Shown here: piece by piece, positions 1,760 through 46,718 of the stretch
Layout: every line of letters starts with the position of its first letter
Position numbering within the stretch: the first letter of the stretch is position 1
Origin: Coleofasciculus sp. B1-GNL1-01
GTDB taxonomy: Bacteria > Cyanobacteriota > Cyanobacteriia > Cyanobacteriales > Coleofasciculaceae
Assembly: GCA_040220235.1 (NCBI GenBank)
Contig: JAVJTO010000157.1
Reading direction: 5' to 3' (one strand)
Length of the DNA stretch: 64,000 bases
Position numbers and translations under genes: made by a program
Notes under the pieces: model-generated
The model's input: the letters and a program-made list of their open reading frames with translations, nothing else
Told to the model about the DNA's origin: nothing
The model's database searches: none

Positions 1760-1867
1760 AACCGCGAACCCGATAATTCCCACAACCGCGATCGCGTCTT
1801 GGATCGGGTTATGGTTGAAAAGGTGAACTTCGCCAAATCCTCCCAGCCCGATCGCCAATCACTCTTG

Positions 1868-3445
1868 ATGGATATTAATCAGTTACTCCTCTGGATTGTC
1901 TGCACCTCCTGCATTCTGAACATTATCGTCGGAATTCGCCGTGCTAGTATTTCGGATTCAGCCGTGTATATCCGTAGCTGGATGCTTGTTTCTGGTTTAG
2001 TATTAGCCACAACAGGTGTCTTATATGTCCTCACTCCAGAGAATGCAGGCTGGATTGGTGGGGGGTTATGGGGGTTGTTGATCTTAATGCCGATTCTGGG
2101 GTTTAGACTCATGAATCAACTGGCATATCAGGAACGCTTTGGTGCAGCTAGCCGACTGGGTAAACTCCTGTGTTGGCTACACCCCGCCCAAAATTGGCGT
2201 CAATTTGCTGAATTGTTGGACACCCTGGAACAATTGAAGCAGGGTTCAACTACTGAAGCCACGGCGATTATTAACCGCTACAAAACCACCAATCGTCCTC
2301 TGGTGCGACATACCATTGCCACTCTCTATAAAATGGAGGCACGTTGGCAAGAGTTGCGGGAGTGGATTGAAACCAACGTATCACAGACCGCCCTGGAACA
2401 TGATCCCAGTCTAATCCTGTACTACCTGAGAGCGTTGGCAGAGATGGGGGACTTAAATCATTTGCTCACCCAAGTTGATCGATTTGAACGTATCTTAGAA
2501 CGGAGCGATCGCGGCATCAATCAGAGTCAAGCTTATTTATTTGCCTTTGCCTTTTGCGGTCAAAAAGCCCAGGTCGTACAATTACTCACTGGACCTTTAG
2601 CATTTTATCCAAAGTACATTCGCCAATTTTGGCTGGCTACAGCAGATTGGGCGGCGGGAGACGTAGAGGAAGCACGTCAGCAACTGTCGGCTATTTCTAA
2701 CCGCCATACTGGACTCTACCGCCATGCGATTCAAGCTCGTTTATCCCAGTCACCTGTTAACCCTGATGCTGTTTTGACTCCATATTCTCAGCAGATTTTA
2801 GCGCGACTTACACTCAATCTCCAACATCAGATGCGATACGGTTCCAGAGAACGGTTTCTAGGTTCTAGAGCCTATACAACTTGGGCAATTATTGGATTAA
2901 ACCTGATTGTATTTGGATTGGAAATTCACTTTGGTGGAAGTGAAAATCCGCAAGTTTTATACAAACTTGGAGCCTTAGTACCAGAGGAAGTTCTCGACGG
3001 TGCTTGGTGGCGGTTATTAACCTCAACATTTTTGCACTTTGGATTTCTGCATCTATTAATGAATATGCTGGGTCTGTATATCCTTGGACCCTTTGTCGAA
3101 TATGCGCTCTCTGGGTGGCGATATTTGCTGCTTTACCTCAGTTGTGGTGTTGGTTCGATGTTTGTGGTATCTCTAGCCACTCATTTCGGATATTCTGAGG
3201 CACAATTTGTGGTTGGGGCATCCGGTTCCGTGATGGGGATTGTGGGCGCAACTGCAGCTATTTTACTTCAAGGATGGCGGCGCGAAAAATCGCGTTTAGC
3301 CTCTCGTCGTTTACGGTTTATTTTATTTATTATTGCCTTTCAAGTTATCTTTGACTTATCAATTCCTCAAGTCAGTGTCACGGGTCACACATCAGGCTTA
3401 ATTATCGGTTTTTTGGTTGGGAGTATACTAAGTCATAAATCATAA
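1868..3445 (+). CDS. Rhomboid intramembrane serine protease with N-terminal TM and TPR-like region
   Basis: WWRLLTSTFLH, HLLMNM, catalytic GASG and GHTSG motifs; start placed at MDINQLL (ORF track starts at 1721 inside a REP). Confidence 0.9.
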   Translation: MDINQLLLWIVCTSCILNIIVGIRRASISDSAVYIRSWMLVSGLVLATTGVLYVLTPENAGWIGGGLWGLLILMPILGFRLMNQLAYQERFGAASRLGKLLCWLHPAQNWRQFAELLDTLEQLKQGSTTEATAIINRYKTTNRPLVRHTIATLYKMEARWQELREWIETNVSQTALEHDPSLILYYLRALAEMGDLNHLLTQVDRFERILERSDRGINQSQAYLFAFAFCGQKAQVVQLLTGPLAFYPKYIRQFWLATADWAAGDVEEARQQLSAISNRHTGLYRHAIQARLSQSPVNPDAVLTPYSQQILARLTLNLQHQMRYGSRERFLGSRAYTTWAIIGLNLIVFGLEIHFGGSENPQVLYKLGALVPEEVLDGAWWRLLTSTFLHFGFLHLLMNMLGLYILGPFVEYALSGWRYLLLYLSCGVGSMFVVSLATHFGYSEAQFVVGASGSVMGIVGATAAILLQGWRREKSRLASRRLRFILFIIAFQVIFDLSIPQVSVTGHTSGLIIGFLVGSILSHKS

Positions 3446-3476
3446 ACATGCCCTCGAAGGTGATGAAGGGTCAATT

Positions 3477-3543
3477 GTAGGGGCGGGTTTAGCCACTCGA
3501 ACAAGCTTGTTACCAATAACTGACCAACAAAACCCGCCCTTAC
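3477..3543. repeat. GTAGGGGCGGGTTT...AAACCCGCCC REP pair; further copies at 4423..4482, 5365..5668, 16760..16823, 39184..39247
   Basis: The same inverted repeat recurs in several intergenic regions, usually just after a stop codon. Confidence 0.8.
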
Positions 3544-3622
3544 TCAAATCTTGCGCTACTCCCCCAGCCACCAAGCTAAAATCAAACAACGACTTTCATC
3601 TCGTGGGGCGCAACTAAGTTTG

Positions 3623-4411
3623 ATGAAATTGCTGATCAGCAACGATGACGGAATTTTTGCCTTGGGGATTCGCACCTTGGCTGATACACTGGCACAAGCG
3701 GGTCATGATGTTACCGTCGTTTGTCCAGATCGAGAGCGATCGGCAACGGGTCACGGTTTAACCCTCCATGATCCCATTCGCGCCGAAGCAGTTGATACGA
3801 TTTTTCACCCGGCGGTTAAAGCTTGGTCTTGTTCTGGAACTCCCTCCGATTGTGTAAAGTTAGCATTGGGAGCCTTAATTGATAGTCCTCCCGATTTTGT
3901 CCTATCTGGGATTAACCACGGTTCTAACTTAGGAACTGATATCCTTTACTCTGGCACGGTTTCCGCCGCCATGGAAGGGGTTTTAGAAGGAATTCCCAGT
4001 ATTGCCTTCAGTCTGACTAGCTACACGTCAAAGGAGTTTCATGTTGCAGCCACGTTCGCCAAAAGCCTGATTGAGCGACTCTCTGGTACACCCCTAGCCA
4101 AAGTCATGTTACTTAATGTTAATGTACCGCCTGTGAGTCAGGCGGAAATTGCTGGGGTTAAGGTTACCCGCCAAGGAATTCGTCGTTATTTCGACACCTT
4201 TGAGAAACGAGTTGATCCACGGGGTAAAACCTATTATTGGTTAGCGGGTGAAGTGATTGAAGATATAGAACAACCCCCCCATTCCCATCTTCCCCCCGAT
4301 TTAGCTACCGATGTTCAAGCAATTAAGGAAAACTATATTGCCATTACCCCCCTGCAATACAACCTGACGGATATTGCTGGCGTCTCTAGTTTGCAGAGTA
4401 TAGAGTTTTAA
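3623..4411 (+). CDS. surE: 5'/3'-nucleotidase SurE
   Basis: [45 protein letters not shown]. Confidence 0.97.
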
Positions 4412-5244: not shown

Positions 5245-5396
5245 AGCCGATTAAGTTTGAACATCTTTTGCAGGGGTTTCCTGTTGATAAGAAGTCAGTA
5301 GAAACGTTCCGCCAGAACGTCTGTATCAAGCATGTCCTCTTGTCGCAATGAAGGAGCAATTTTCGGGGCGGGTTTATCGGTTTAATTCGGTATCTA

Positions 5397-5637
5397 AGCG
5401 GTTCGGCATTTAAACCTTAATGTCAATCATGGCTCTCATCCTTGTAGTGCGTTTAGCGAAGCCATGCCGCAGGCTTTAGCGAAGCCATGCCGCAGGCTTT
5501 GCATCTTGCTCGCTACTAATATCCAATTTACAGCGCTTTTCACGTTTATGGAATACAAAATTGTATCGGCTTGCTTGTCAGCGCAATCATCGTCTGTAGT
5601 CTACTAACTTGAAAACTGCTGTAAATGCATGACAGCT
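5397..5637. mobile_element. TA-flanked MITE (family A) carrying a nested 91-bp MITE at 5531..5621
   Basis: Ends AGCGGTTCGGCATTTAAA and ...AATGCATGACAGCT; homologous copies at 16859, 17034, ~44270, 46831; inner element CAGCGCTTTTCA...TGAAAACTGCTG with duplicated TA. Confidence 0.75.
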
Positions 5638-18232: not shown

Positions 18233-18838
18233 ATGCTTCGCCCCGGCGACGCCGATATCTTAAATTTTCTTGAACAAATCCAGCTGGCTCGAAACGTCAC
18301 GGCTGGTTTACGCTGCTATCGTCTGCGAACGATGTGCTTACATTTTGGGCGATGGCTGAAATTAAGCAAAACCCAACTGCGCCAGCTTGTTTTCCTGAGT
18401 TACTGTCATGGCTTAGGCAAACTCAGCATTCCCGACTCGATTTTACTCAATCCCGGTTCCTTAAGTGAACAGGATTGGGTAAAAATTCGCGAGTATCCCG
18501 AAGTGTCTGCTTTGATCTGCAAGCAGCTTCCGGGGTTGAAAGAATTTGTCCCTCTTGTCTTGTCTCATCAAGAACGACTCAATGGCACCGGCTATCCTAA
18601 AGGACTCAAGGGTGATGAAATTCCGTTTATTGTCCAAGTTTTCCAGCTTGTCAATATCGCCGATGCCATTATCAGTAAGCGACTCCATCGCACCCGGAAT
18701 GAACCCTCAAGCGATCGCCCCTACTGGATGCAAGCCATAGAGGAGATTACCAAGGAGATGGAAGCAGGCGCACGCGATCCCAACTTATGTGAGAAGTTTT
18801 TCCGATTTCTGGAGCTGTTCTACCAAGGCGGCGGGTGA
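18233..18838 (+). CDS. Stand-alone HD-GYP domain protein, degenerate active site
   Basis: HGLGK (for HDIGK), [15 protein letters not shown]. Confidence 0.8.
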
Positions 18839-18859
18839 TGGGAAGATTGGGGAGCTGAG

Positions 18860-19050
18860 GGAGCGGGGGGAGCAGGGGGAGCAGGGGGAGCAGGGGGAGC
18901 AGGGGGAGCAGGGGGAGCAGGGGGAGCAGGGGGAGCAGGGGAAGCAGGGGGAGCAGGGGGAGCAGGGGAAGCAGGGGGAGCAGGGGGAGCAAGGGGAGCA
19001 GGGGGAGCAGGGGGAGCAGGGGAAGCAGGGGGAGCAGGGGAAGATGGGGG
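18860..19050 (+). repeat. 9-mer tandem repeat (GGGGAGCAG)n, followed by (TTCCCTA)n heptamers to ~19146
   Basis: Tandem arrays read directly. Confidence 0.92.
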
Positions 19051-25963: not shown

Positions 25964-26136
25964 TTAAACCATGGATAATTCAGAAAATCCCCGGGGTGAC
26001 AGTAGGGGGATATTGTCGCTGATTGGGGAGACGCATTGATGTGCGAATCGGCAGTTAGGGAGGCGGATTTCGGGTAGTCTCAACCCTCACAGGTGTCAAG
26101 GCTAGCCAGTTTTTGGTTTAATGTATCGTTTTGCCT

Positions 26137-26155
26137 GTCATTTTGTGGTCATTTT
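26137..26155 (+). promoter_or_regulatory. Putative OmpR-family binding direct repeat
   Basis: GTCATTTT-gtg-GTCATTTT, 11-bp period, upstream of the OB-protein/RR/HK operon. Confidence 0.55.
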
Positions 26156-26202
26156 TCATCAGTATATTCATTATTGTTCCTCAACAGTGTCAGGACTAAA
26201 CC

Positions 26203-26757
26203 ATGAAACGCATCAAAACATTAACCTTGATCGCCGCCGGAGTCTTGTCTACCATCGCTGTGCCACTTGTGAGCCATACACAGACAACCTACACGGGAAC
26301 AGTTGAGCGGGTGTGGGAAGATGGATTTCATTTCAGAACCGGCGATCGCAGCTTCAAGGTGGATACATGGGAACTCTACGGTGATAACACAGCCGAACAG
26401 ATTAAAATAGGCGATCGCGTAACCATCTCTGGAGAATTTGAAAATGGCGAATTTGATGCCAACTCCCTCACCAATGCGGCTACCTCTAAACCTTCAACGA
26501 CCGATACGGAAACTGCCACACCGTCACCGGTGAGCCGCGCCCAGACAACCTACACAGGAACAGTTGAGCGGGTGTGGGAAGATGGATTTCATTTCAGAAC
26601 CGGCGATCGCAGCTTCAAGGTGGATACATGGGAACTCTACGGTGACAACACAGCCGAACAGATTAAAATAGGCGATCGCGTAACCATCTCTGGAGAATTT
26701 GAAAATGGCGAATTTGATGCCAACTCCCTCACCGATGCGGCTACCTCCACACCTTAA
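26203..26757 (+). CDS. Secreted OB-fold (BOF/YgiW-like) protein with a tandemly duplicated domain
   Basis: Signal peptide; two near-identical copies of YTGTVERVWEDGF...GDRVTISGEFENGEFDA. Confidence 0.75.
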   Translation: MKRIKTLTLIAAGVLSTIAVPLVSHTQTTYTGTVERVWEDGFHFRTGDRSFKVDTWELYGDNTAEQIKIGDRVTISGEFENGEFDANSLTNAATSKPSTTDTETATPSPVSRAQTTYTGTVERVWEDGFHFRTGDRSFKVDTWELYGDNTAEQIKIGDRVTISGEFENGEFDANSLTDAATSTP

Positions 26758-26848
26758 ACAGGGCGGCTAAAAGTGTTTTGTGGGCTGTGGAAGGCACAAA
26801 TGCCAAATCCACAGTTCCGATCATAGACTCTCACCCACGCCACAAGAT

Positions 26849-27526
26849 ATGCGAATCTTGCTCGTCGAAGATGATCCAGAACAAATTGAACCCCTCCACG
26901 CCGCCTTGACTCGTTCAGGACATATCGTCGATGCGGTGGAAGATGGAACAACCGCCCGATGGCTGATGGGCGAAAAAGACTATGACTTGCTCATTTTAGA
27001 CTGGATGTTGCCCGGTGAGGATGGTATTTGTCTGTGTCAGCAGTATCGTCAGGCAGGAAAAGCCGCTCCCATTCTCATGCTGACGGCAAAAGATACCATT
27101 GCCGATAAGGTGATGGGGTTAGATGCTGGCGCCGATGATTATCTGGTCAAGCCTGTGGATATTCAAGAACTGCTGGCGCGGGTGAGGGCTTTGCGGCGAC
27201 GAGCGCCCCTCTGGTGCGGTGACGTGGTGCAAGTTAGCGATCTATCCCTGCATCTCGACACCATGCGCGTGGAACGGGGAAGCGTTAGCCTGAAACTAGC
27301 AAGCCGGGATTTTCAACTTCTGGAGTACATGATGCGCCATCCCCACCAGATCCTCACTCACGATCAGATTGAACAGGCACTATGGGAATGGGGAGAGGAA
27401 CCCGAAAGTAATGCGGTAACCGCTCGGATTAGACGCCTGCGTCAACGGTTGCGCGAAATCGGTGTAGACGGTTGGATTGAAACCCTCTACGGCACAGGTT
27501 ATCGTCTTGAACCTCCTTCGGATTGA
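26849..27526 (+). CDS. OmpR-family response regulator (RppA-like)
   Basis: ILLVEDD, ILDWMLP, LTAKD, GADDYLVKP; winged helix ending IETLYGTGYRL. Confidence 0.93.
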   Translation: MRILLVEDDPEQIEPLHAALTRSGHIVDAVEDGTTARWLMGEKDYDLLILDWMLPGEDGICLCQQYRQAGKAAPILMLTAKDTIADKVMGLDAGADDYLVKPVDIQELLARVRALRRRAPLWCGDVVQVSDLSLHLDTMRVERGSVSLKLASRDFQLLEYMMRHPHQILTHDQIEQALWEWGEEPESNAVTARIRRLRQRLREIGVDGWIETLYGTGYRLEPPSD

Positions 27527-27529
27527 GAT

Positions 27530-29014
27530 ATGACTCATCCAGTTTCTGTTGTTCATCAACGCTGGCAAACACTGCCGATTCGAGTGCGGGGAACCGTGAT
27601 TATTGTACTTCCCGTAACCTGTTTGTTCATGGCATTGTCGGCATTTGCCTGGTTGAAAGCCAGCTTGGTGGAAGATGAAACCTGGGTGCAACACACTCAA
27701 ATTGTGCGTTTGGAAACCAAACGTCTCTTGAATGCCTTGGTTGATGCGGAAACCGGAGTTCGAGGGTATGGATTGACCCAACGAGATGAATTTTTGACTC
27801 CTTACAACCGGGCTAAAGCGATTATTCCTAAATCGTTGGATCGATTAGAACAACTGGTACAAGACAATCCTCAACAAACCCAACGAATACAGGATATTCG
27901 GACAGGGGTTGATGAGAATCTAAGGATTTTTCAACAGAAATTAACCTTACAGCGAGAACTAAAACTCATTCAGGGACAAACCGATATTTTTGTTCCAGTT
28001 GCCTCTCTCTATGCGTGGTTAGAGGAAGGAAAAGCGACGATGGATGCTACCCGAACAGAAATCGATCGCTTTGCCCAAACCGAGGAAGAATTATGGGTAC
28101 AACGCCGACAACACCAAGACTTTTATCGACAAATTACCTGGATTGTGTTATGTATTTTTGGCGTAATTGGGACGCTCAGTGCCTGGTTTGCCGTTCACCT
28201 TTTCTATCAGTTGGAACGAGAGTTAGCCAACCGGGAAGATCGCTTGCGTCAAACGAATCAACGTTTGGAGATTGTCTGTGAGCAACTCCAACGATTTACC
28301 GCCAATGCCTCTCATGAATTGCGGGCGCCTTTAGCGGCAGTGTTGAGTAATGCTCAGGTGGGATTGATGGATCTCGATGACTTGGAAGAGGAGTCAATTC
28401 CACTGCGCCAACGACTCGACAAGATTGTCAATTTGACCAAACAGATGAGTTCACTGGTGAGTGACTTGTTATTTTTGGCGCGACATGAAGGGTTATTGGC
28501 GGCTGATTCACTCCAATGTGTTGATCTGACCGATTTATTAAGTAATTTAGTGGTCGATTGGCTACCGCAAGGGAAAACCCATCAGCTAACGCTAACGAGT
28601 CAGTTACCCAAAATGGCGGTTGAAGTGAATGCCGATGCCAACTTGTTGCAGCAAGCGATCGCGAATCTCCTCAGTAATGCTTGCCGCTATACACCCGCCG
28701 GAGGCATGATCGAACTGCGTCTACTTACACGCACCGATCAAGCCTTGATTCAGGTTGAAGATACTGGAATCGGTATTCCCCCAGAGGCTCTACCTCATCT
28801 GTTTGAACGGTTTTATCGCGTTGATTCAAAGCGTGCCAAAGCCTCCGGCGGCTTTGGCTTAGGATTAGCGATCGCACAACAGATTGTTCAGGCTCATGGG
28901 GGACACATCAACGTTACCAGCACCCTGGGACAGGGTTCGACGTTTCAAATTTCTCTACCCTTGAACATTTCCACGAAGGCGGCGCAAAACCTCAACAGGA
29001 ATGGCATAAAATGA
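27530..29014 (+). CDS. CHASE3 sensor histidine kinase
   Basis: TM-CHASE3 ([19 protein letters not shown])-[23 protein letters not shown]. Confidence 0.93.
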
Positions 29015-32000
29015 CTGTTCGCTGTAACTCTGTCCACTAGAGTTCTCCCGTTTGCGCTCCGTGAAGAAGCTTAACAATCCCACAACCTCTCCCAATTGAT
29101 TCAAAATCGGCGCACCGCTAATCCCCCCCTGAAGCGGAATACTCACCTCTAGCACCCGCTCAGTGCAAAGTTGACTCGGTCGGATACGGTTGACCAAGCC
29201 AACATTACAGTAGAGATTTTCTTCAAACCCACCCTCCCCAGGCGCCGGAAAACCAACGGTCAAAATCCGCTCCCCAACCTCAACGAGTTCCGAAAAGCCT
29301 AACCGTAATGGAGTAACAGGAGTAGACTCAGGTCGCAAGCACAGGATTGCCACATCGTCCGCGCCCCAAGTCGGTAAATAGATTTCTGTTACCTGGAGAC
29401 GACCTTCCTTGGTAATTACGCTGACCGCTTCCGGTAAAATGCATTGTCCTGTGGACTGGTTTACGACAACGTGACGGTTGGTCGCCACTGCATCGGGACT
29501 AATAACAAAGCCACTACCACTGCCAGCAAATCCGCCTACATTCACCTGTATCCAAACCACGGAGGAGGCATAAATCCGCACCGAATGATTGAGGCTCTCA
29601 AAGTCGGGACTGTGAGAGCCAAGCATTGGGGCGTGGTCTAAAAACAATGCGCTATAAGCCTCTCGTTGGCGGGAACGAGCCAAAATTTCCAAACCGAGTT
29701 CGACCTGGGATGGAGATAGGGGAGCCTCAATCCGATGAAAATGAGTAATGGCTTCTGAATAGCGGTTAAGACGGAGGAAATGTTGAGCCAGTTCTTCAGC
29801 ATTTCCCTCAGGGTTAATCGGAAGGTTCTCAATGGCACTCAACCATCTCCTGTAAGTCGCCGCCACGTCTGTCACCTCTTGGGCGGCTGAGCGGGTGCGC
29901 TCAAGCAGGCTAGTGCCTTCCTCGATTAATTGCTCCACTTGCTGTGAGACTTGTGTAGAACGCCAATCGAGCGACCCATAACCCTCCAACCAAGTCCGGC
30001 TACTCCGGCTCAAGCTGTCCCATCGATCCTGGGCTAACCGTGCCTTCATCTCTAATTCGTCGCGGTTGCGGTAGACCTCAAACAACCTGTCATTGTCTGT
30101 CGGAGTCGGCAAATACCGCTCTCGGTGACGTTCATAGTAGTGCAATCGCTGTTGCAAACCGGCTGAGAGTTCCAGAATATTGATCCGTTGGGTCTCTTGC
30201 AGCATCTGTGTGAGGTTCCTCGCCAGTTTCTCTAACCCTGTCAGGTGTCCTTGATGAGTCTGAGAGTCTCGGAATCTGGCTTGCAGCGAAGCCGCTTGAG
30301 CCGGCGTCAGTAGGTGCGAGTCGGAGATAGTGATGCTGCATTGTTTTCCCGTTCCAGCATCGCGAGCGGTCACAGTCAGAAGGCAATTGCTATCGATATC
30401 AAAAGTGACATCGATTTGGGGAATTCTAGCTTGGGCGGGAAGTATTCCTTGCAGAATAAATTGTCCGATCTTAAAATTTTCCTCAGGAACAGAGGATTCT
30501 CCCTGAAAGATCTGAATTCTAACGTTGGTCTGATTGTCCTCAACTGTAGTATAGCGTCGTGTTGTTTGAGTCGGGATGGTCGTGTGCTTGGGGATTAAGG
30601 AATCAAACTTGAACTGACCCGGTGCTACATAGGATTTAATCCCCAGACTGAACGGAACAGCATCCAACAAGATAGCATCCTGTAGTGAACCCATCAGGAT
30701 CGCCGCTTGCAGAGCCGCTCCACGGGCAACGGCTGTTAGCGGATCTAAATCCGAGTTAGGGTCTTGGGCAAACACATCCCCAATACACTCACGAACCGCA
30801 GGCATCATCGCTCCACCGCCGATGAGAAGTATCCGACTCGGTTGGCGATTAATCTTTTGGCAGGTTGTCCGAATGCGATCCAGCCAAGGTGCAGCTAGGC
30901 GTTCGAGTTCGTCTCGTGTCAGTTCCAGGGTGATCGGGCTACCGTTAATCAAATCGGGTAGCTCAATTGTCCAAGCGCTGCGGGAGGACAGTTCAATCTT
31001 GAGTTCTTCGCCAGCCTGACGCAGACGGGTGACGGTGCGGCGATCGCCGTTTATATCCTGCCCGGTTTCAGCTTTAATCACCTCTAGAAAATGAGCATAC
31101 AACACATCATCTAAATCAGCACTGCCAAGTGCATTATCTCCCTCGATTTCCAGTACCTCAAAGACGCTTTCCTCGACTTCAATAATGGAAAGATCAAAGG
31201 TTCCTGCTCCCAAGTCAGCGACTAAAATCGTTTCATTGATAGAAGAGCGGGTACGCTGGGCAAGGCAAGCCGCCGTTGGTTCGTGAATTAAGCGCAGGAT
31301 GTTGATATCCGCCAGCACTCCGGCAGTCTTTGTCGCTTGTTTCTGGGCATCATTGAAGTAAGCCGGTACTGTAATCACAGCATTGGCTAAAGGAATGGTG
31401 GGGGGATGTTGATCGAGGTAGGTTATTACCCAGTCCTCTGGCACAGATGTTCCGATCACCTGAGCCGCCATTCGGGAAATTTTCTCACCAATCTTTTTGT
31501 GCAGATACTCCCTCGCTAATTCACGGGCGTGGTTAATAATCCGCGCTGAAATTTCTTCAGGACGGTATACCTGACCCCCGGCTTTGAATTTGGTGTCCGT
31601 TCCCATCTGCCGTTTAGCTTGAGTGACAATGGCGCGAGGTGATTTCCCCAGCAGCTCGGATATCGGCACACCAACCCGTTCCCGCCCCACTTGATCGATC
31701 GCAAACACGGACGGAATCTGCCGTCGCCCCTGCCATTCGACAACCTCTGGCTCTCCTTGCTTTTGGTTATACAGACAAACCACACTGTTACTGGTACCCA
31801 GGTCAAGCGCGATCGCATCAATGTAGTCTGCCAGAATCTCCTGAGTCGCGGCTTGCACCCATCGATCCGCTTGCTCTTCAAATCGACGCCTATCTAACGC
31901 CTCAATGCTGGGCAACTCTGTAGCAACCAGGTCTAGCCATTTGCCACTCACCAACCCTTGCTCTCCTAGGTCTTTCAGGCGTCGTAGTAAACGCGCTTTT

Positions 32001-33658
32001 TCCTCGGGCGGTTGCTCCCGTTCGTAGGCTTGAGCCGCGCAAAGTTCCGCCAGTTCCTCGACTTGACCGGCTTTGGTGATTAATTCTTGGAAGCGATGAT
32101 CGAATACGACCCGCTGATCGCCAAGTTGCTGCCGTCGGAGTTGGGCAGCACGCTGGTATTCCCTCGCCTGTTCGTACATTGAAATCGCCTGTTCGATTTC
32201 TCCCAAACGTTCGTAGAGAAGTCCCGCCATAAAGAAGTCACCGCCTTGCTCGAGCAACTGAGCCTTTTTCCGAGGGTTGGGATGGTCTGGATCGGCAGAA
32301 TCCAGGGCAATCAGGGCTTGACCAAAGGCACCGGCTTTCTCAAATAATAAGGATGCGGCAAAATAGTCTTGAGCTTTCTCTGCCTGGAATCCAGCTTCGA
32401 GATAATTACCAGCAGCTTCTTCCAACAGGCTCCATTGTTTGAACAGGTCTTTTTCTGATTGTCCCTGAGTCGTTGGCAATTGGGCTTCAAAGGAGGCTCG
32501 AACGGTTCGGATTACTTCCGAGAGCAGGTGTTGGGTGCGATCCGCCTCAGAGCGAAGACTTGACTCGGCAGATTTGTTTCGCCATGCTTGCTCTACGGTT
32601 CGTAGTAGGCGAACTGCCTCTAAAAAGTCTTGGCGATCAAGATGCCCTCGGACGGTGTTCTCCATTGCCTCTCGGATATCGAGTATCCACTCAGAACGAA
32701 TCGCGGGACGGAGTTGGATTGCCAGTTCGAGCTGTCCCATTTGTTGGTAACAGTCGCTGGCGCCCTCGAGGTTGCCAGCTTTTTGAAAGTGTTCTCGGGC
32801 ATCGGCATAACTCCCTTGCTCCCAGAACCATGAGGCTACGTTCTCATGGGCTTGGGCAATTGTATCGGGGTCTTTGACACGCTCCGCCAAGTCGAGAACG
32901 CGAAGGGCAGTTTCTTTACCTGGAACAGACAGGAGGTAACGGATAGCACTGGCGTAATCTCTGGCTACTTCTGCCAAGTTTGCCGCTTCCTCATAGCGCT
33001 CCATTAGGGCATAAACCTGATGAATTTGAGGCAGTTGGGTGTCCGGAAATTCTGAGAAGAAGGCTTTCCAGGGATGGCTATCCTCAAAGGAATTGTGGTC
33101 TAAATAGGTGGAGAGGATTTCATGGAGTTCGGCTTTAGGGAGACACCCTTGTTCTCGTCGCTTTAGCAACTTCACCAGTAGTCCATTGGTGTCACCAATT
33201 CGGGCAGATTGGACACAGATTAGCTGTTGTATCTCGGTTTGCCGTAACGGGTTTTGCAGTCGCCCCGAAAGCCGCCATGCCGCATCGAGGGCTTGAGCCG
33301 TTGGCGATTGGGCTTTCAGTAGAACCGAGAGCGATCGCTCTTGCCGAAAGCTGGAATTGGGCTGCCACTCCCCAAAGAGCGGGTCAAATTGCACGATGAC
33401 TTGGATGAGTTGTGAGTAATCGCATTGCTCAGCCAGGGATAGGGCTTTGCCATAGGTTTTCCAAGCTTTCTCTTTCGCGCGATCGGAAGGGTTAGCAGTG
33501 GTTAATTGCTTGTGTAGCGTTTGGCAAGTCACTGTCAACTGCTGCTGGGGTGAGCCGAATCCTGGTATTCGTTTCCGCAAAAAGCTGGGCAAAGTTCTGG
33601 TCAGATGTTTGCCTAAAACCTGAAACAACCTCTGTAAGTTTAGGTGCCAATTAAACAT
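28955..33658 (-). CDS. Fusion protein: alpha-solenoid/TPR repeats + Hsp70 + trypsin-like serine protease
   Basis: [26 protein letters not shown], linker [22 protein letters not shown]-terminal GSGF, TNRHVV, DVAIL, GISGAP. Confidence 0.9.
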
Positions 33659-34467
33659 CTATGTAAGGATTTAGGTTGAGTGTGCATTATACGACTAAAG
33701 CAGAAGGCTGACGGTTACCAGAAGTTCAGTATAGATATAATATCCTACGTCTACAGGGAGTCAACCGTCAAAAAAGGGGAATTGAGTATCTTAGATTACC
33801 GTTTTTTAGGAAATGATCACTGACGAGAACGACATGAGATCAAGATTTAACACAAATTCCGGCGGAATCGTTTCTCCTGAAAGGGTAGCAGGAGATTCGA
33901 GTCCCTCAACCTCTCGAAGCATGGAAGTGCTGGTACTTTATGCACCTTTGATCGTCCTCAAAACCTTTATTTTTCTGGATTTGGCGAGTTTTGCAGCCAG
34001 CCCTAAGGAGTCGGACTTTCATTCAAGTTAATGGTTGAGGTTAGGGAACTCACGGATTTTTAACAGGGAAACGTAAGGATTGAGCGGCTCCTTAACATTT
34101 CTTAGTACAGCGGCAAGAATTTATGTCCAGGTACTTATTTGAGTAGCTTACCCGTCCCTTCAGCACTCTAGATCGGGTTCGAGACATTCGCTCAACTGGA
34201 CATCTCCTCGAAGCCTAGAGAGGAATTTTATCGGGTTCGCTAGGTGGAAGTTACCTTCTTTTTTGTACGATAGGTTGATAGGACAAGTTATCAACTCTCG
34301 ATGACCCACAGCGGTTCTTTGCCGAATCGTGTTGCTTAATGGCGTTCCCCATACCTGCCGATTGCTCTTAAGCCATTGGGTATTGCGGCAATTTGAATCA
34401 TAAAAGAGGGGAATTGTCAAGAGTTTGTTGCCAAGCTCAAGCTAAACACTGCTTATCGCTTATTTGA

Positions 34468-39283: not shown

Positions 39284-39901
39284 TTATTTATTAAATTTTT
39301 CGGCGATATAACCAATCCGATCAACAATATCGGCAACCTTACTAATGTAATAATTATTTTCGTTAACCGATAGTGTCAAGTTTTCTAGCAATAAAAACGA
39401 CCAGACTTCCCCATCGGTGATAATGCCGTAGACTTGATCTTGCTGGAACTTCTTGAGAGTGGCATACATTTCAGCGACACATTGCCCTAACCCATCAGAT
39501 AGACTGCTTTTTTTTACTTCAACCACTGAAATAATCGGCGAGATAAAATCAATCTCATCAAGACTTAAAGCGCAATCGTATTTACCATTTAAAGGGTGAG
39601 GCAAACCCGGTGTTTCCTCTGGATTAATATCAACGGGTGGTTCAAAAAAGATACCGAGATTATAAGTGTCGCTAGCTTCCCACAAAATGTGAGATACTAA
39701 GAGGCTGCCTCGGGTTGCTTCGTTATCCGATTTGGACAGGCTAATGCGAGACTTCATCTTTTTCACGGCTACCTGCAAATCAGGATAAGACTGATCTGTG
39801 GGGTGAAAGTTGTTAAATAAATTAGCGTCTTTCAATAGCGTGATATTAAAGATAGCTTTTAATTCAGCGGCTGAGTATTTTCTATAGTCACCAAAAGACA
39901 T
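39284..39901 (-). CDS. PD-(D/E)XK nuclease-fold hypothetical protein (HsdR N-terminal-like)
   Basis: NGKYD...VEVKK...GQCVAEM...YGIITDGEVWSF. Confidence 0.75.
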   Translation of the reverse strand: MSFGDYRKYSAAELKAIFNITLLKDANLFNNFHPTDQSYPDLQVAVKKMKSRISLSKSDNEATRGSLLVSHILWEASDTYNLGIFFEPPVDINPEETPGLPHPLNGKYDCALSLDEIDFISPIISVVEVKKSSLSDGLGQCVAEMYATLKKFQQDQVYGIITDGEVWSFLLLENLTLSVNENNYYISKVADIVDRIGYIAEKFNK

Positions 39902-44384: not shown

Positions 44385-46718
44385 CTAAGAACGATCGCCT
44401 TCCATAATAGTCCTAATTGCCCGATCCAGCAGTTCAATCGCTTCATTTTCATAATGATAGGTTTTAAACTTTTGTCCAGATTCTATCACTTCTGGGCGCT
44501 TGGAGGGACGGCGACCATAGTGGGATTGATAAAGCTGGAGCGCCAACGAGCCAATCGAAGTCTTTTGCCCTTTGGTAGCATCAATATTGAGTTCACGGAG
44601 TCGCATCGCCACGCTAACAAATTGTTGATTTGGCGATGCTGGAGACTGCATCGTTCTCACCTGATTCAGTGCATCAATTAAAGTTTGATGAGACTCAGAT
44701 AATAATAAAGGCAACTGAGTATATCGGCGCATTGGTTTATCGATACTAACAGCATACCTTAACGTTTCTGGTCTACCAACGGCGATAAATCCACCATAGC
44801 TGGCACGAGTCATTGTGGTGTAGAGAAGTTGACGAGAAAGCATCCGGTGGTTTGAAGGCGACAGAGGCATAATTACATACTGGAATTCACTACCTTGAGC
44901 CTTATGGCAAGTTAGGCAAAACGAATGCATAATCTGCTCAAAAATGCCGGGGACATAATCAACAACCGCGCCGCCTTCAAATGCAACCGTAACCCGTTCA
45001 GGATTGGATTTGGTTTTAACCTCAATCACCCAACCCCCCTCGCCATTCATTACCGCCGGGATTGTATCATATCTATTCTTCAATTGAATCACGCGATCGC
45101 CAACTCGATACACCACCTCCCCCGTTTCCACTTCTGGCTGTTCCGGTTGTTTTGGGTTAAACAGAGGCTGCAATCGTTTATTTAACGCTTGAACCCCAAC
45201 CACCCCTTTCTTTTGGGGAGCAAGAACCATTACCTGATCTTTTAAGTTAACCTGATCACGCTGCATCTGTGCCACTAGCTCGACAATGGTATCGGCAATT
45301 GCTTCCGGGGTGTGGCGACACAGCAGGGCGCAATCGGAAACTCGTTGCCATTGTTGAGGAGAGTAAAACTGTTGCAACTGAGGAACCAAGCCACGAATAA
45401 CATCTTCTGCGGCATAGATAATTGGACTTTCTTGCCGTTGGCGGTAAATTTTGTTCAGGCGAGAACAGGGTACAACTTCAGATATCAGTAAGTCGCGCAG
45501 CACCATTCCCGCGCCCACACTCGGAAGCTGATTATGATCCCCAACCAACACGATTCTCGTATGGGGTTCTAAGGCTTTTAAGAGGGAATTAAACAGGAAA
45601 ATATCAACCATACTAAATTCGTCGATAATTAACCAGTCAATCGGCAAGGGATTGTCCTGATTAAACTCAAACTTTTGACCGTACCCTCGCCACTGAAGTA
45701 GACGATGAATCGTTTGGGCATCTAACCCGGTGGCGTTCTTCATTCTTGTCGCTGCCTTTCCCGTAGGTGCAGCTAAAGCCACCTTGAATCTACACTCCGT
45801 TAGCCAATCGATCAAATACTTCAAAATATGCGTTTTCCCTCGCCCAGCACCCCCCGTAATAATGCTAATGGGTTGGGCATAGGACTTTAACAGTGCCTGT
45901 CGCTGTTCTAGATCAAGCACCCCAGACTGCCGCCATTCTACTGCTTCTAGTTCTTGTAACCACTCCTCTAACGGTTCGATAGGCAGTTTTCTGCGAGAGG
46001 CAAAATACAGAATCAATCGGGCGACATTAACCTCCGCCCGATAAATTGGTTTTAAATAAAGAGACTCGGATAACCGTCCCTCCACTACAATTTTTTGGGT
46101 GAGCGCATTCTCTAATACCTGATTAAGTAACTGGGGATTTGGTGTATGTCCCGGACAACTCAATAACTCTAGTGCTGCTTCAATAAGTTCGGAGCTGGGG
46201 AGAAAACAATGTCCCTGATTTCTGGCATCTTGTAAGGTTTGAAGAATCCCTTGCTCATAGCGCAGGGGACTATCAGGAGGCATCCCCAACTTGAGCGCTA
46301 AACTGTCAGCTATTTTAAATCCGATTCCATCAATCTCATTAATAATCTGATAAGGGTTGGTGTTGAGGACGGATGCTGTACGCTGATCATAGTAGTCAGT
46401 CAGTTTTAGGGTTAACCCCAAAGATATCCCCATCCCCAGCAACCAAGCTTGAGTCCCTCGGACTGGGTTGCTCTTGCTTTTCTCCCAAGCTGAGAGGATG
46501 GCATCAATCCGATATTGGTATAACCCAGGAATAAGTTTAAGTCGTTGGGGTGAGAACTCCAGAACGTCTAGGGTATCAGAGCCAAAATAGGCTGTCAGCA
46601 AAGTCGCTGTCTTCTTGCCAATGCCATGAAATATACCACTGGCAAGATACTGTTCGATTTCTGCTGGATCGAGCCTGGGGAATTGATCGTTGTTGTCTGT
46701 TGGGAAAGCCATTGGCAT
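44385..46718 (-). CDS. RecD2-like SF1B helicase, no N-terminal OB domain, extra C-terminal domain
   Basis: HhH GIGKKTA and NPY..GIGFKIAD; motifs GGAGRGKT, APTGKAA, TIHRLL, DEFSM, GDHNQLPSV, YRQ, HKAQGSEF, LYTTMTRA. Confidence 0.9.
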   Translation of the reverse strand: MPMAFPTDNNDQFPRLDPAEIEQYLASGIFHGIGKKTATLLTAYFGSDTLDVLEFSPQRLKLIPGLYQYRIDAILSAWEKSKSNPVRGTQAWLLGMGISLGLTLKLTDYYDQRTASVLNTNPYQIINEIDGIGFKIADSLALKLGMPPDSPLRYEQGILQTLQDARNQGHCFLPSSELIEAALELLSCPGHTPNPQLLNQVLENALTQKIVVEGRLSESLYLKPIYRAEVNVARLILYFASRRKLPIEPLEEWLQELEAVEWRQSGVLDLEQRQALLKSYAQPISIITGGAGRGKTHILKYLIDWLTECRFKVALAAPTGKAATRMKNATGLDAQTIHRLLQWRGYGQKFEFNQDNPLPIDWLIIDEFSMVDIFLFNSLLKALEPHTRIVLVGDHNQLPSVGAGMVLRDLLISEVVPCSRLNKIYRQRQESPIIYAAEDVIRGLVPQLQQFYSPQQWQRVSDCALLCRHTPEAIADTIVELVAQMQRDQVNLKDQVMVLAPQKKGVVGVQALNKRLQPLFNPKQPEQPEVETGEVVYRVGDRVIQLKNRYDTIPAVMNGEGGWVIEVKTKSNPERVTVAFEGGAVVDYVPGIFEQIMHSFCLTCHKAQGSEFQYVIMPLSPSNHRMLSRQLLYTTMTRASYGGFIAVGRPETLRYAVSIDKPMRRYTQLPLLLSESHQTLIDALNQVRTMQSPASPNQQFVSVAMRLRELNIDATKGQKTSIGSLALQLYQSHYGRRPSKRPEVIESGQKFKTYHYENEAIELLDRAIRTIMEGDRS

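Follow-up and report, generated by a model that had tools for sequence, protein, structure and literature searches.

A solenoid-Hsp70-HtrA-type protease fusion of Coleofasciculus and its relatives: a possible NLR-like conflict receptor of multicellular bacteria

The gene and its domains

We analyzed a 64,000-nucleotide stretch of genomic DNA from the filamentous cyanobacterium Coleofasciculus sp. B1-GNL1-01 (assembly GCA_040220235.1, contig JAVJTO010000157.1; the whole stretch is called the window), in which a single large gene occupies positions 28955..33658 on the minus strand. The open reading frame (ORF) begins with ATG, has 0 internal stops and encodes a protein of 1567 amino acids (aa) that combines a helical solenoid, an Hsp70 unit and an HtrA-type protease, as indicated by the ORF call, Pfam and homologues. 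Pfam matched HSP70 at aa 616-1152 (E = 3e-110) and Trypsin_2 at aa 1381-1528 (E = 1.8e-22), with weak TPR-type matches at aa 213-540. No NCBIfam model was matched at or above its cut-off. An initial annotation made from the sequence alone had described this ORF as about 600 aa of helical repeats, a full Hsp70 and a C-terminal trypsin domain with an intact triad, and each motif that it quoted was located in the sequence. A chance join or misassembly was ruled out by the same domain arrangement in 104 other proteins (some partial).

Two AlphaFold2 models were made from 69-row alignments, one covering the N-terminal part and one residues 987-1567. Residues 5-611 of the N-terminal model are helices only (mean predicted local distance difference test, pLDDT, 90.4; predicted template modelling score, pTM, 0.56). 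The second model shows a substrate-binding beta domain (SBD-beta) and long helices, then four short ones and a trypsin fold (pLDDT 88.4, pTM 0.60). Given these pTM values, both models are confident per residue and not for the placement of domains. All domains below lie on the minus strand.

The all-helical solenoid (aa 37-611; 31826..33550) is of a TPR/IFT140-172-like type according to AlphaFold2 and a profile search, and in the model its last helix (572-611) passes straight into the ATPase domain. The comparison with solved structures was by sequence profile only, and the best matches were IFT172 (E = 3.2e-15) and IFT140 (E = 4.4e-12); at the level of sequence this likeness is one of repeat type, and no descent is claimed. 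Foldseek with the N-terminal model matched Hsp70 domains only, and the ESM Atlas matches of the solenoid (best 0.85) serve as leads only. Solenoid repeats resembling those of the family were also seen in a UvrD helicase (P0198). In front of the solenoid, aa 1-35 (33554..33658) comprise a basic amphipathic helix and a flexible linker at the place where relatives carry add-on modules. The helix (5-21) is modelled with low pLDDT, and the segment has a net charge of +6 and a moment of 0.64. By visual judgement only, the protein has no signal peptide.

The Hsp70 ATPase domain (aa 612-993; 30680..31825) carries D619, K682, E793, D815, T820 and D822 and the family mark GAGT, with DLGTSNS at 619, EPTAA at 793 and DLGAGTFD at 815. 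It is followed by the linker and SBD-beta (aa 994-1111; 30326..30679, from AlphaFold2 and alignment), with the interdomain linker motif at 996. An actin-fold ATPase with catalytic D/K/E/D/T, a linker and SBD-beta are features of the Hsp70 superfamily, and the protein is a member of that superfamily, not of DnaK, NLR or HtrA. The host genome has three ordinary DnaK genes; the ATPase domain is ∼36% identical to host DnaK, and the DnaK equivalog model of NCBIfam scored 395 bits vs. a cut-off of 648. Alignment with host DnaK indicated that the peptide pocket and linker are retained. S and E stand at the positions of DnaK K55 and R56, and 4 aa of the GrpE loop are missing, changes that we take to predict GrpE-independent nucleotide release, as in HscA. 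A conserved W743 lies in a helical insertion specific to the family (aa ∼716-757; 31388..31513, from alignment and AlphaFold2); the insertion, ∼34 aa relative to DnaK, is carried by all aligned rows and had been missed in the initial annotation. The lid (aa 1112-1285; 29804..30325) consists of four helices (1119-1157, 1161-1177, 1186-1228, and 1237-1277). The initial annotation had placed a helical spacer here instead of a lid; we consider the lid elongated and not replaced, because the spacer begins as a normal lid (the Pfam match reaches model position 537 of 599) and continues in lengthened helices. Four short TPR-like helices (aa 1286-1355; 29594..29803, AlphaFold2) then precede the protease. 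No Pfam, NCBIfam or PADLOC match to a STAND P-loop NTPase (Avs, NACHT, NB-ARC) was obtained with the protein. As noted initially, no dnaJ or grpE was present among the 13 neighboring ORFs scanned between 21372 and 49246, a subset of those in the window.

The protease (aa 1356-1567; 28955..29593) is of the HtrA/Deg type, with the triad H1396/D1435/S1514 and oxyanion glycine G1512. Structure comparison of its model gave Deg1 with Z 24.0, a root-mean-square deviation of 2.3 and 190 aligned residues, and the HhoA/HtrA model of NCBIfam did not reach its cut-off (31 vs. 450 bits). Pfam and AlphaFold2 indicated no PDZ domain, the protein ending after the protease. Three copies of residues 1291-1567 were modelled as a trimer (ipSAE 0.84, best control 0.00, pLDDT 85), with contact agreement of at least 91% among runs. 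In the calibration, whose job differs from that of the trimer, 20 of 30 solved homo-pairs and one of 23 single chains attained the ipSAE mark. The pass may reflect likeness of the model to solved HtrA/Deg trimers. The PADLOC model of the retron type XI RT-protease matched the protease part alone (E = 4e-13), with no reverse transcriptase fusion. This match is not specific as a sign of defence, and an unrelated small trypsin at another family locus (L045) scores higher.

Distribution, conservation and N-terminal modules

The protein search returned 110 proteins of 8000 scored, and 104 of them were aligned with the query (105 rows). The best 80 of 208 matches in a genome scan correspond to 78 loci, comprising 72 family members and 6 plain Hsp70 genes. 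The hosts are filamentous cyanobacteria, Verrucomicrobia, Acidobacteria, Obscuribacter, Binatia, one myxobacterium and 42 actinobacteria (one copy on a plasmid); a more distant branch with the same domain order was found among cluster representatives. In a quick tree of the Hsp70 core (81 rows, with 14 near-duplicate or partial rows excluded) the family forms one clade apart from host DnaK with support of 100, and Streptomyces members fall in four places. A viral origin was rejected, as each of 11 loci from viral contigs matched the Hsp70 part alone. Other Hsp70 fusions, with a kinase plus J-domain, PilZ or zinc ribbons, were noted in P0106-P0108.

The gene was found in 5 of 401 cyanobacterial genomes, 6 of 52 genomes of the taxonomic family and 3 of 9 of the genus; the copies in named relatives of the Coleofasciculus-type filamentous host are 97-98% identical. 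It lies in a variable slot (25970..34170, no strand assigned) whose flanks adjoin in the six genus genomes without it, both flanks being on one contig; one of these genomes (G401) skips from window position 28964 to 34178. Three loci are frameshifted or interrupted (L030, L043, and L045). The last of these, a Chamaesiphon copy, is broken by ∼1 kb (L045:11890-12952) and split again further downstream. We concluded that the gene is real, conserved and accessory.

E793, A818, and D822 are present in 105/105 aligned rows. The ATPase residues are kept in all 42 actinobacterial loci and in 27 of 28 non-actinobacterial loci, the exception being the interrupted L045 (27/27 informative). The linker/SBD-beta region is the best conserved between clades (45.9%) and also the closest to DnaK. 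The triad H, D and S were present in 91, 97, and 92 of the 105 rows, respectively, with gaps in 7-8 rows. By locus, 23 of the 24 informative cases outside the actinobacteria have an intact triad, with four further loci lacking the region in the longest ORF (the interrupted L045 was not scored as triad-broken). In actinobacteria the triad is broken in 33 of 42 loci, and the remaining 9 lack the oxyanion glycine. Because the ATPase is kept while the actinobacterial triad is mostly broken, the solenoid-Hsp70 part is the core and the protease one output. The protease proposed initially as the output is intact in the window protein; being dead in most actinobacterial copies, it cannot be the universal output.

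Several relatives carry additional domains at the N-terminus: TIR (P0130 and P0139, ThsB-like, E = 1e-16), PNP plus TIR (P0143, L069, and L072), CHAT (P0088 and P0163), a Ser/Thr kinase (L068), HEAT repeats (the partial sequences P0199 and P0204) and, by eye, a likely two-helix membrane segment (L081 and P0160). The 370-aa N-terminal region of P0151 gave no Pfam or PADLOC match; an RxxxxH-like motif was seen there by eye only. In members that have no add-on, the protein starts with a helix that is basic and amphipathic (84 proteins; mean charge +5.75, moment 0.65); the corresponding values in solenoid windows are -1.0 and 0.42.

Four actinobacterial members begin with a 31-aa N/Q/G/V-rich, amyloid-like motif, whose profile also scores P0206. 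In those four genomes the profile matched 8 further places: three NB-ARC starts, the end of one ∼120-aa protein, three small-protein starts and one stub. BASS motifs are ∼25 aa, N/Q/G/V-rich, and located at NLR starts and effector ends; the relatives' genomes show the same layout in trans. NLR N-termini and effector C-termini were described as the BASS layout, with TIR, CHAT, and PNP as NLR partners (10.1101/2020.01.06.895854), and one NLR amyloid-motif system is anti-phage (10.1101/2024.11.07.622273). No Bell-domain gene adjoins the four motif-bearing family genes at their four loci. The small protein ending in the motif (L192:1069-1575) is Bell-like in size and layout and has no Pfam match. 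The small non-NLR proteins starting with it are at L190, L194, and L196, and two of them have hydrophobic C-terminal segments. At L050, the family gene has an NB-ARC/TPR gene (1768-4065) 5.5 kb upstream whose N-terminal motif is similar, and the family gene's upstream region and first codons are repeated in a stub (5249-5508).

A possible Hsp70-switched receptor and its alternatives

The reading as a conflict or defence protein, offered in the initial annotation, gains support because the distribution is accessory, the hosts are multicellular and relatives carry swappable immune modules. By sequence or model, the Hsp70 ATPase, linker and peptide pocket are intact, the solenoid is rigidly joined to the Hsp70, a PDZ-less HtrA-type protease is hung on the lid, and the N-terminal modules of relatives are interchangeable. 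We give even odds to the protein being an NLR-like conflict receptor of multicellular bacteria, for immunity or cell suicide, that acts alone and is switched by an Hsp70 in place of the STAND ATPase. Somewhat more tentatively, such single-chain receptors could have arrived convergently at the logic of NLRs, using a functional Hsp70 whose peptide pocket and ATP cycle would read foreign or unfolded protein and fire interchangeable outputs. Those outputs, suggested equally tentatively, would be the HtrA-type protease, TIR, PNP, CHAT, kinase, amyloid templating and perhaps a membrane-active N-terminal helix.

In the mechanism that we propose, the ATP-bound, docked Hsp70 would keep the protease domains apart at rest. 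Capture of a foreign or unfolded protein in the pocket and/or on the solenoid would trigger ATP hydrolysis without DnaJ or GrpE, and the lid would then move and free or cluster the protease domains, which may form trimers. The trimers would cut host targets after aliphatic residues and so stop the affected filament cell. Cleavage after Ile, Val or Leu is a guess from the HtrA likeness and from defence trypsins, which cleave at Ile (PMC12642450; PMC12799240). In most actinobacteria, where the protease has decayed, the N-terminus would supply the output, through TIR, PNP, a kinase, the amyloid-like motif or the basic amphipathic helix. If this is true, the family would provide the first pattern-recognition receptor demonstrated to work with an Hsp70 switch, a chaperone allosteric cycle could substitute for the STAND ATPase in immune receptors, and protein-folding surveillance would be linked to cell suicide in multicellular bacteria. 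As material for a test, the family offers a single gene open to clean catalytic mutations at either end, effectors swapped in nature and copies whose protease is naturally dead.

Bacterial NLR/STAND receptors (Avs, NACHT, NB-ARC-TPR) share the single-chain logic of repeat, NTPase and effector, the set of modules (TIR, PNP, CHAT, kinase, trypsin or BASS) and multicellular hosts. The present NTPase is an actin-fold Hsp70 and not a P-loop ATPase, the repeats are N-terminal to it, and the default effector is C-terminal. The NLR-like combination of interchangeable TIR, PNP, CHAT, kinase or amyloid modules on a repeat-NTPase core was found in relatives and not in the window protein. HtrA/Deg proteases (Deg1, Deg5, and DegS) share the fold, the helix before the first strand and the modelled trimer, whereas the window protease lacks PDZ, anchor and (by eye) signal peptide and is fused behind an Hsp70 lid. 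The ATPase, linker and pocket are shared with DnaK, HscA, HscC and the PilZ-DnaK proteins CsdK1/2; the window Hsp70 differs in scoring below every NCBIfam cut-off, in its separate clade and insertion, and in having fusions at both ends.

No description of the solenoid-Hsp70-HtrA architecture was found in the literature searched, which covers few subscription journals; the family, its C-terminal HtrA-type protease and the module exchange appear to be undescribed. Hsp70 in immune proteins is not new in principle, and the fusion of an Hsp70 with a defence protease has a precedent of another architecture. EACC1-caspase-like proteases fused to a lidless DnaK-like domain, for which sensing of misfolded protein or infection stress was proposed, likewise place a DnaK-like domain and a protease in a death or defence context, and the link between folding surveillance and cell suicide was raised in print for such DnaK-protease fusions (PMC12642450). 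Those fusions have a cysteine protease, a lidless DnaK ∼50% identical to DnaK and an adjacent EACC1 pore gene (PMC12642450), whereas the window protein has a C-terminal serine protease, an elongated lid with its helices present, a 600-aa solenoid and no partner gene. An HSP70-like NTPase was stated, with no architecture given, to be able to replace STAND in tripartite conflict systems (10.64898/2026.10.19.760177), and the sources behind that statement may include this family. Hsp70 occurs in DO-GTPase and GAP1-N2 operons (PMC7159879); the family itself was not found in the accessible text or supplements of PMC7159879 and PMC8195603. CnuD of the CoCoNuT systems is an Hsp70-like unit with HEAT repeats inside predicted defence systems, but it has degenerate ATPase motifs, is tied to McrBC operons and carries no protease (PMC10542128).

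Several results weigh against a conflict receptor. PADLOC matches were not enriched among nearest neighbors (15/99 vs. 8/80 for genes >6 kb away, p = 0.37, after 13 near-duplicate loci were dropped), so homologues show no defence-island link, an outcome that the initial annotation had named as counting against its reading; the matches on both sides are mostly generic ABC, kinase, and methyltransferase genes. No conserved effector partner was found across loci, unlike the adjacent cognate effector gene of trypsin-MBL, Pepco and EACC1 modules. Conservation of the solenoid is similar to that of the rest of the protein, and not hypervariable. In actinobacteria, add-on modules are a minority (8/42 loci), and in 26 copies both an add-on and an intact triad are missing. 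The cyanobacterial clade, which includes the window protein, showed no add-on. An effector swap as the cause of protease loss was not supported (7/8 vs. 26/34, p = 0.66). Protease-dead copies show no preferential conservation of the trimer interface (interface columns 39% vs. 43% conserved), and retention of the dead protease as an oligomerisation module is likewise not supported. The N/Q/G/V-rich motif also starts three proteins that are not NLRs.

An unlikely alternative, though the best of those considered, is a proteotoxic-stress or developmental switch that is not phage-specific, in which unfolded protein leads to regulated death or signalling in filaments, like CsdK1/2 of Myxococcus. The intact DnaK-like pocket, the ordinary neighboring genes and the kinase partner in one Streptomyces subclade are consistent with such a switch, as are the precedent of PilZ-DnaK CsdK1/2 (PMC10313047) and the same option raised for EACC1-protease-DnaK fusions (PMC12642450). 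Gain and loss inside one genus and the TIR, PNP, and CHAT add-ons fit conflict better than core stress biology. We regard as rather doubtful a self-contained chaperone-protease for quality control, offered initially as a second option, in which the Hsp70 captures clients and passes them to the HtrA-type domain: a complete Hsp70 beside an HtrA/Deg-like protease and the triad kept in nearly all informative non-actinobacterial loci argue for it, but it is weakened by the dead actinobacterial triads next to a kept ATPase, it has to account for a gene in only ∼1% of cyanobacterial genomes searched, and it leaves the immune add-ons unexplained. An integrated decoy is improbable. In that reading the Hsp70 part would serve as bait for phage proteins by which host DnaK is bound, recruited or cut, and tampering with it would release the effector. 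SBD-beta is DnaK-like and well kept, and for DancE a guard model and the attack of a phage protease on DnaK are reported (10.64898/2026.10.06.757031), but invariant catalytic residues are more than a passive bait requires, and the ATPase domain is divergent from that of host DnaK.

Neighboring genes and other observations

The neighboring genes vary by genome and are ordinary genes, and no recurring cluster was found across the family loci. The sole recurring neighbor is a kinase gene that overlaps the family gene's stop codon in a single Streptomyces subclade (L070, L071, L091, L095, L136, and L144); three of these loci also have a P-loop ATPase upstream. The order of P-loop ATPase, family gene with dead protease and overlapping Ser/Thr kinase gene is seen at L091:7669-15306, L136, and L144.

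Flanking kinase and regulator genes in the window were rejected as partners, as one genome (G404) has the gene without 26000-28950. A DUF5666 duplicate-domain gene, a response regulator and a CHASE3 kinase form a second variable block (26203-29014), which is present only in G000 and G408 of the nine genus genomes. A multi-copy element of ∼135 bp lies upstream of the gene (34003-34140), with 18 matches in the genome, 9 of them at least 100 bp long. Elsewhere in the window, a PD-DExK-like protein (39284-39901, PADLOC E = 4e-31) and a RecD2 helicase (44385-46718) are encoded, and a short tandem-repeat array between two genes (18785-19050) gives rise to low-complexity ORFs in several frames.

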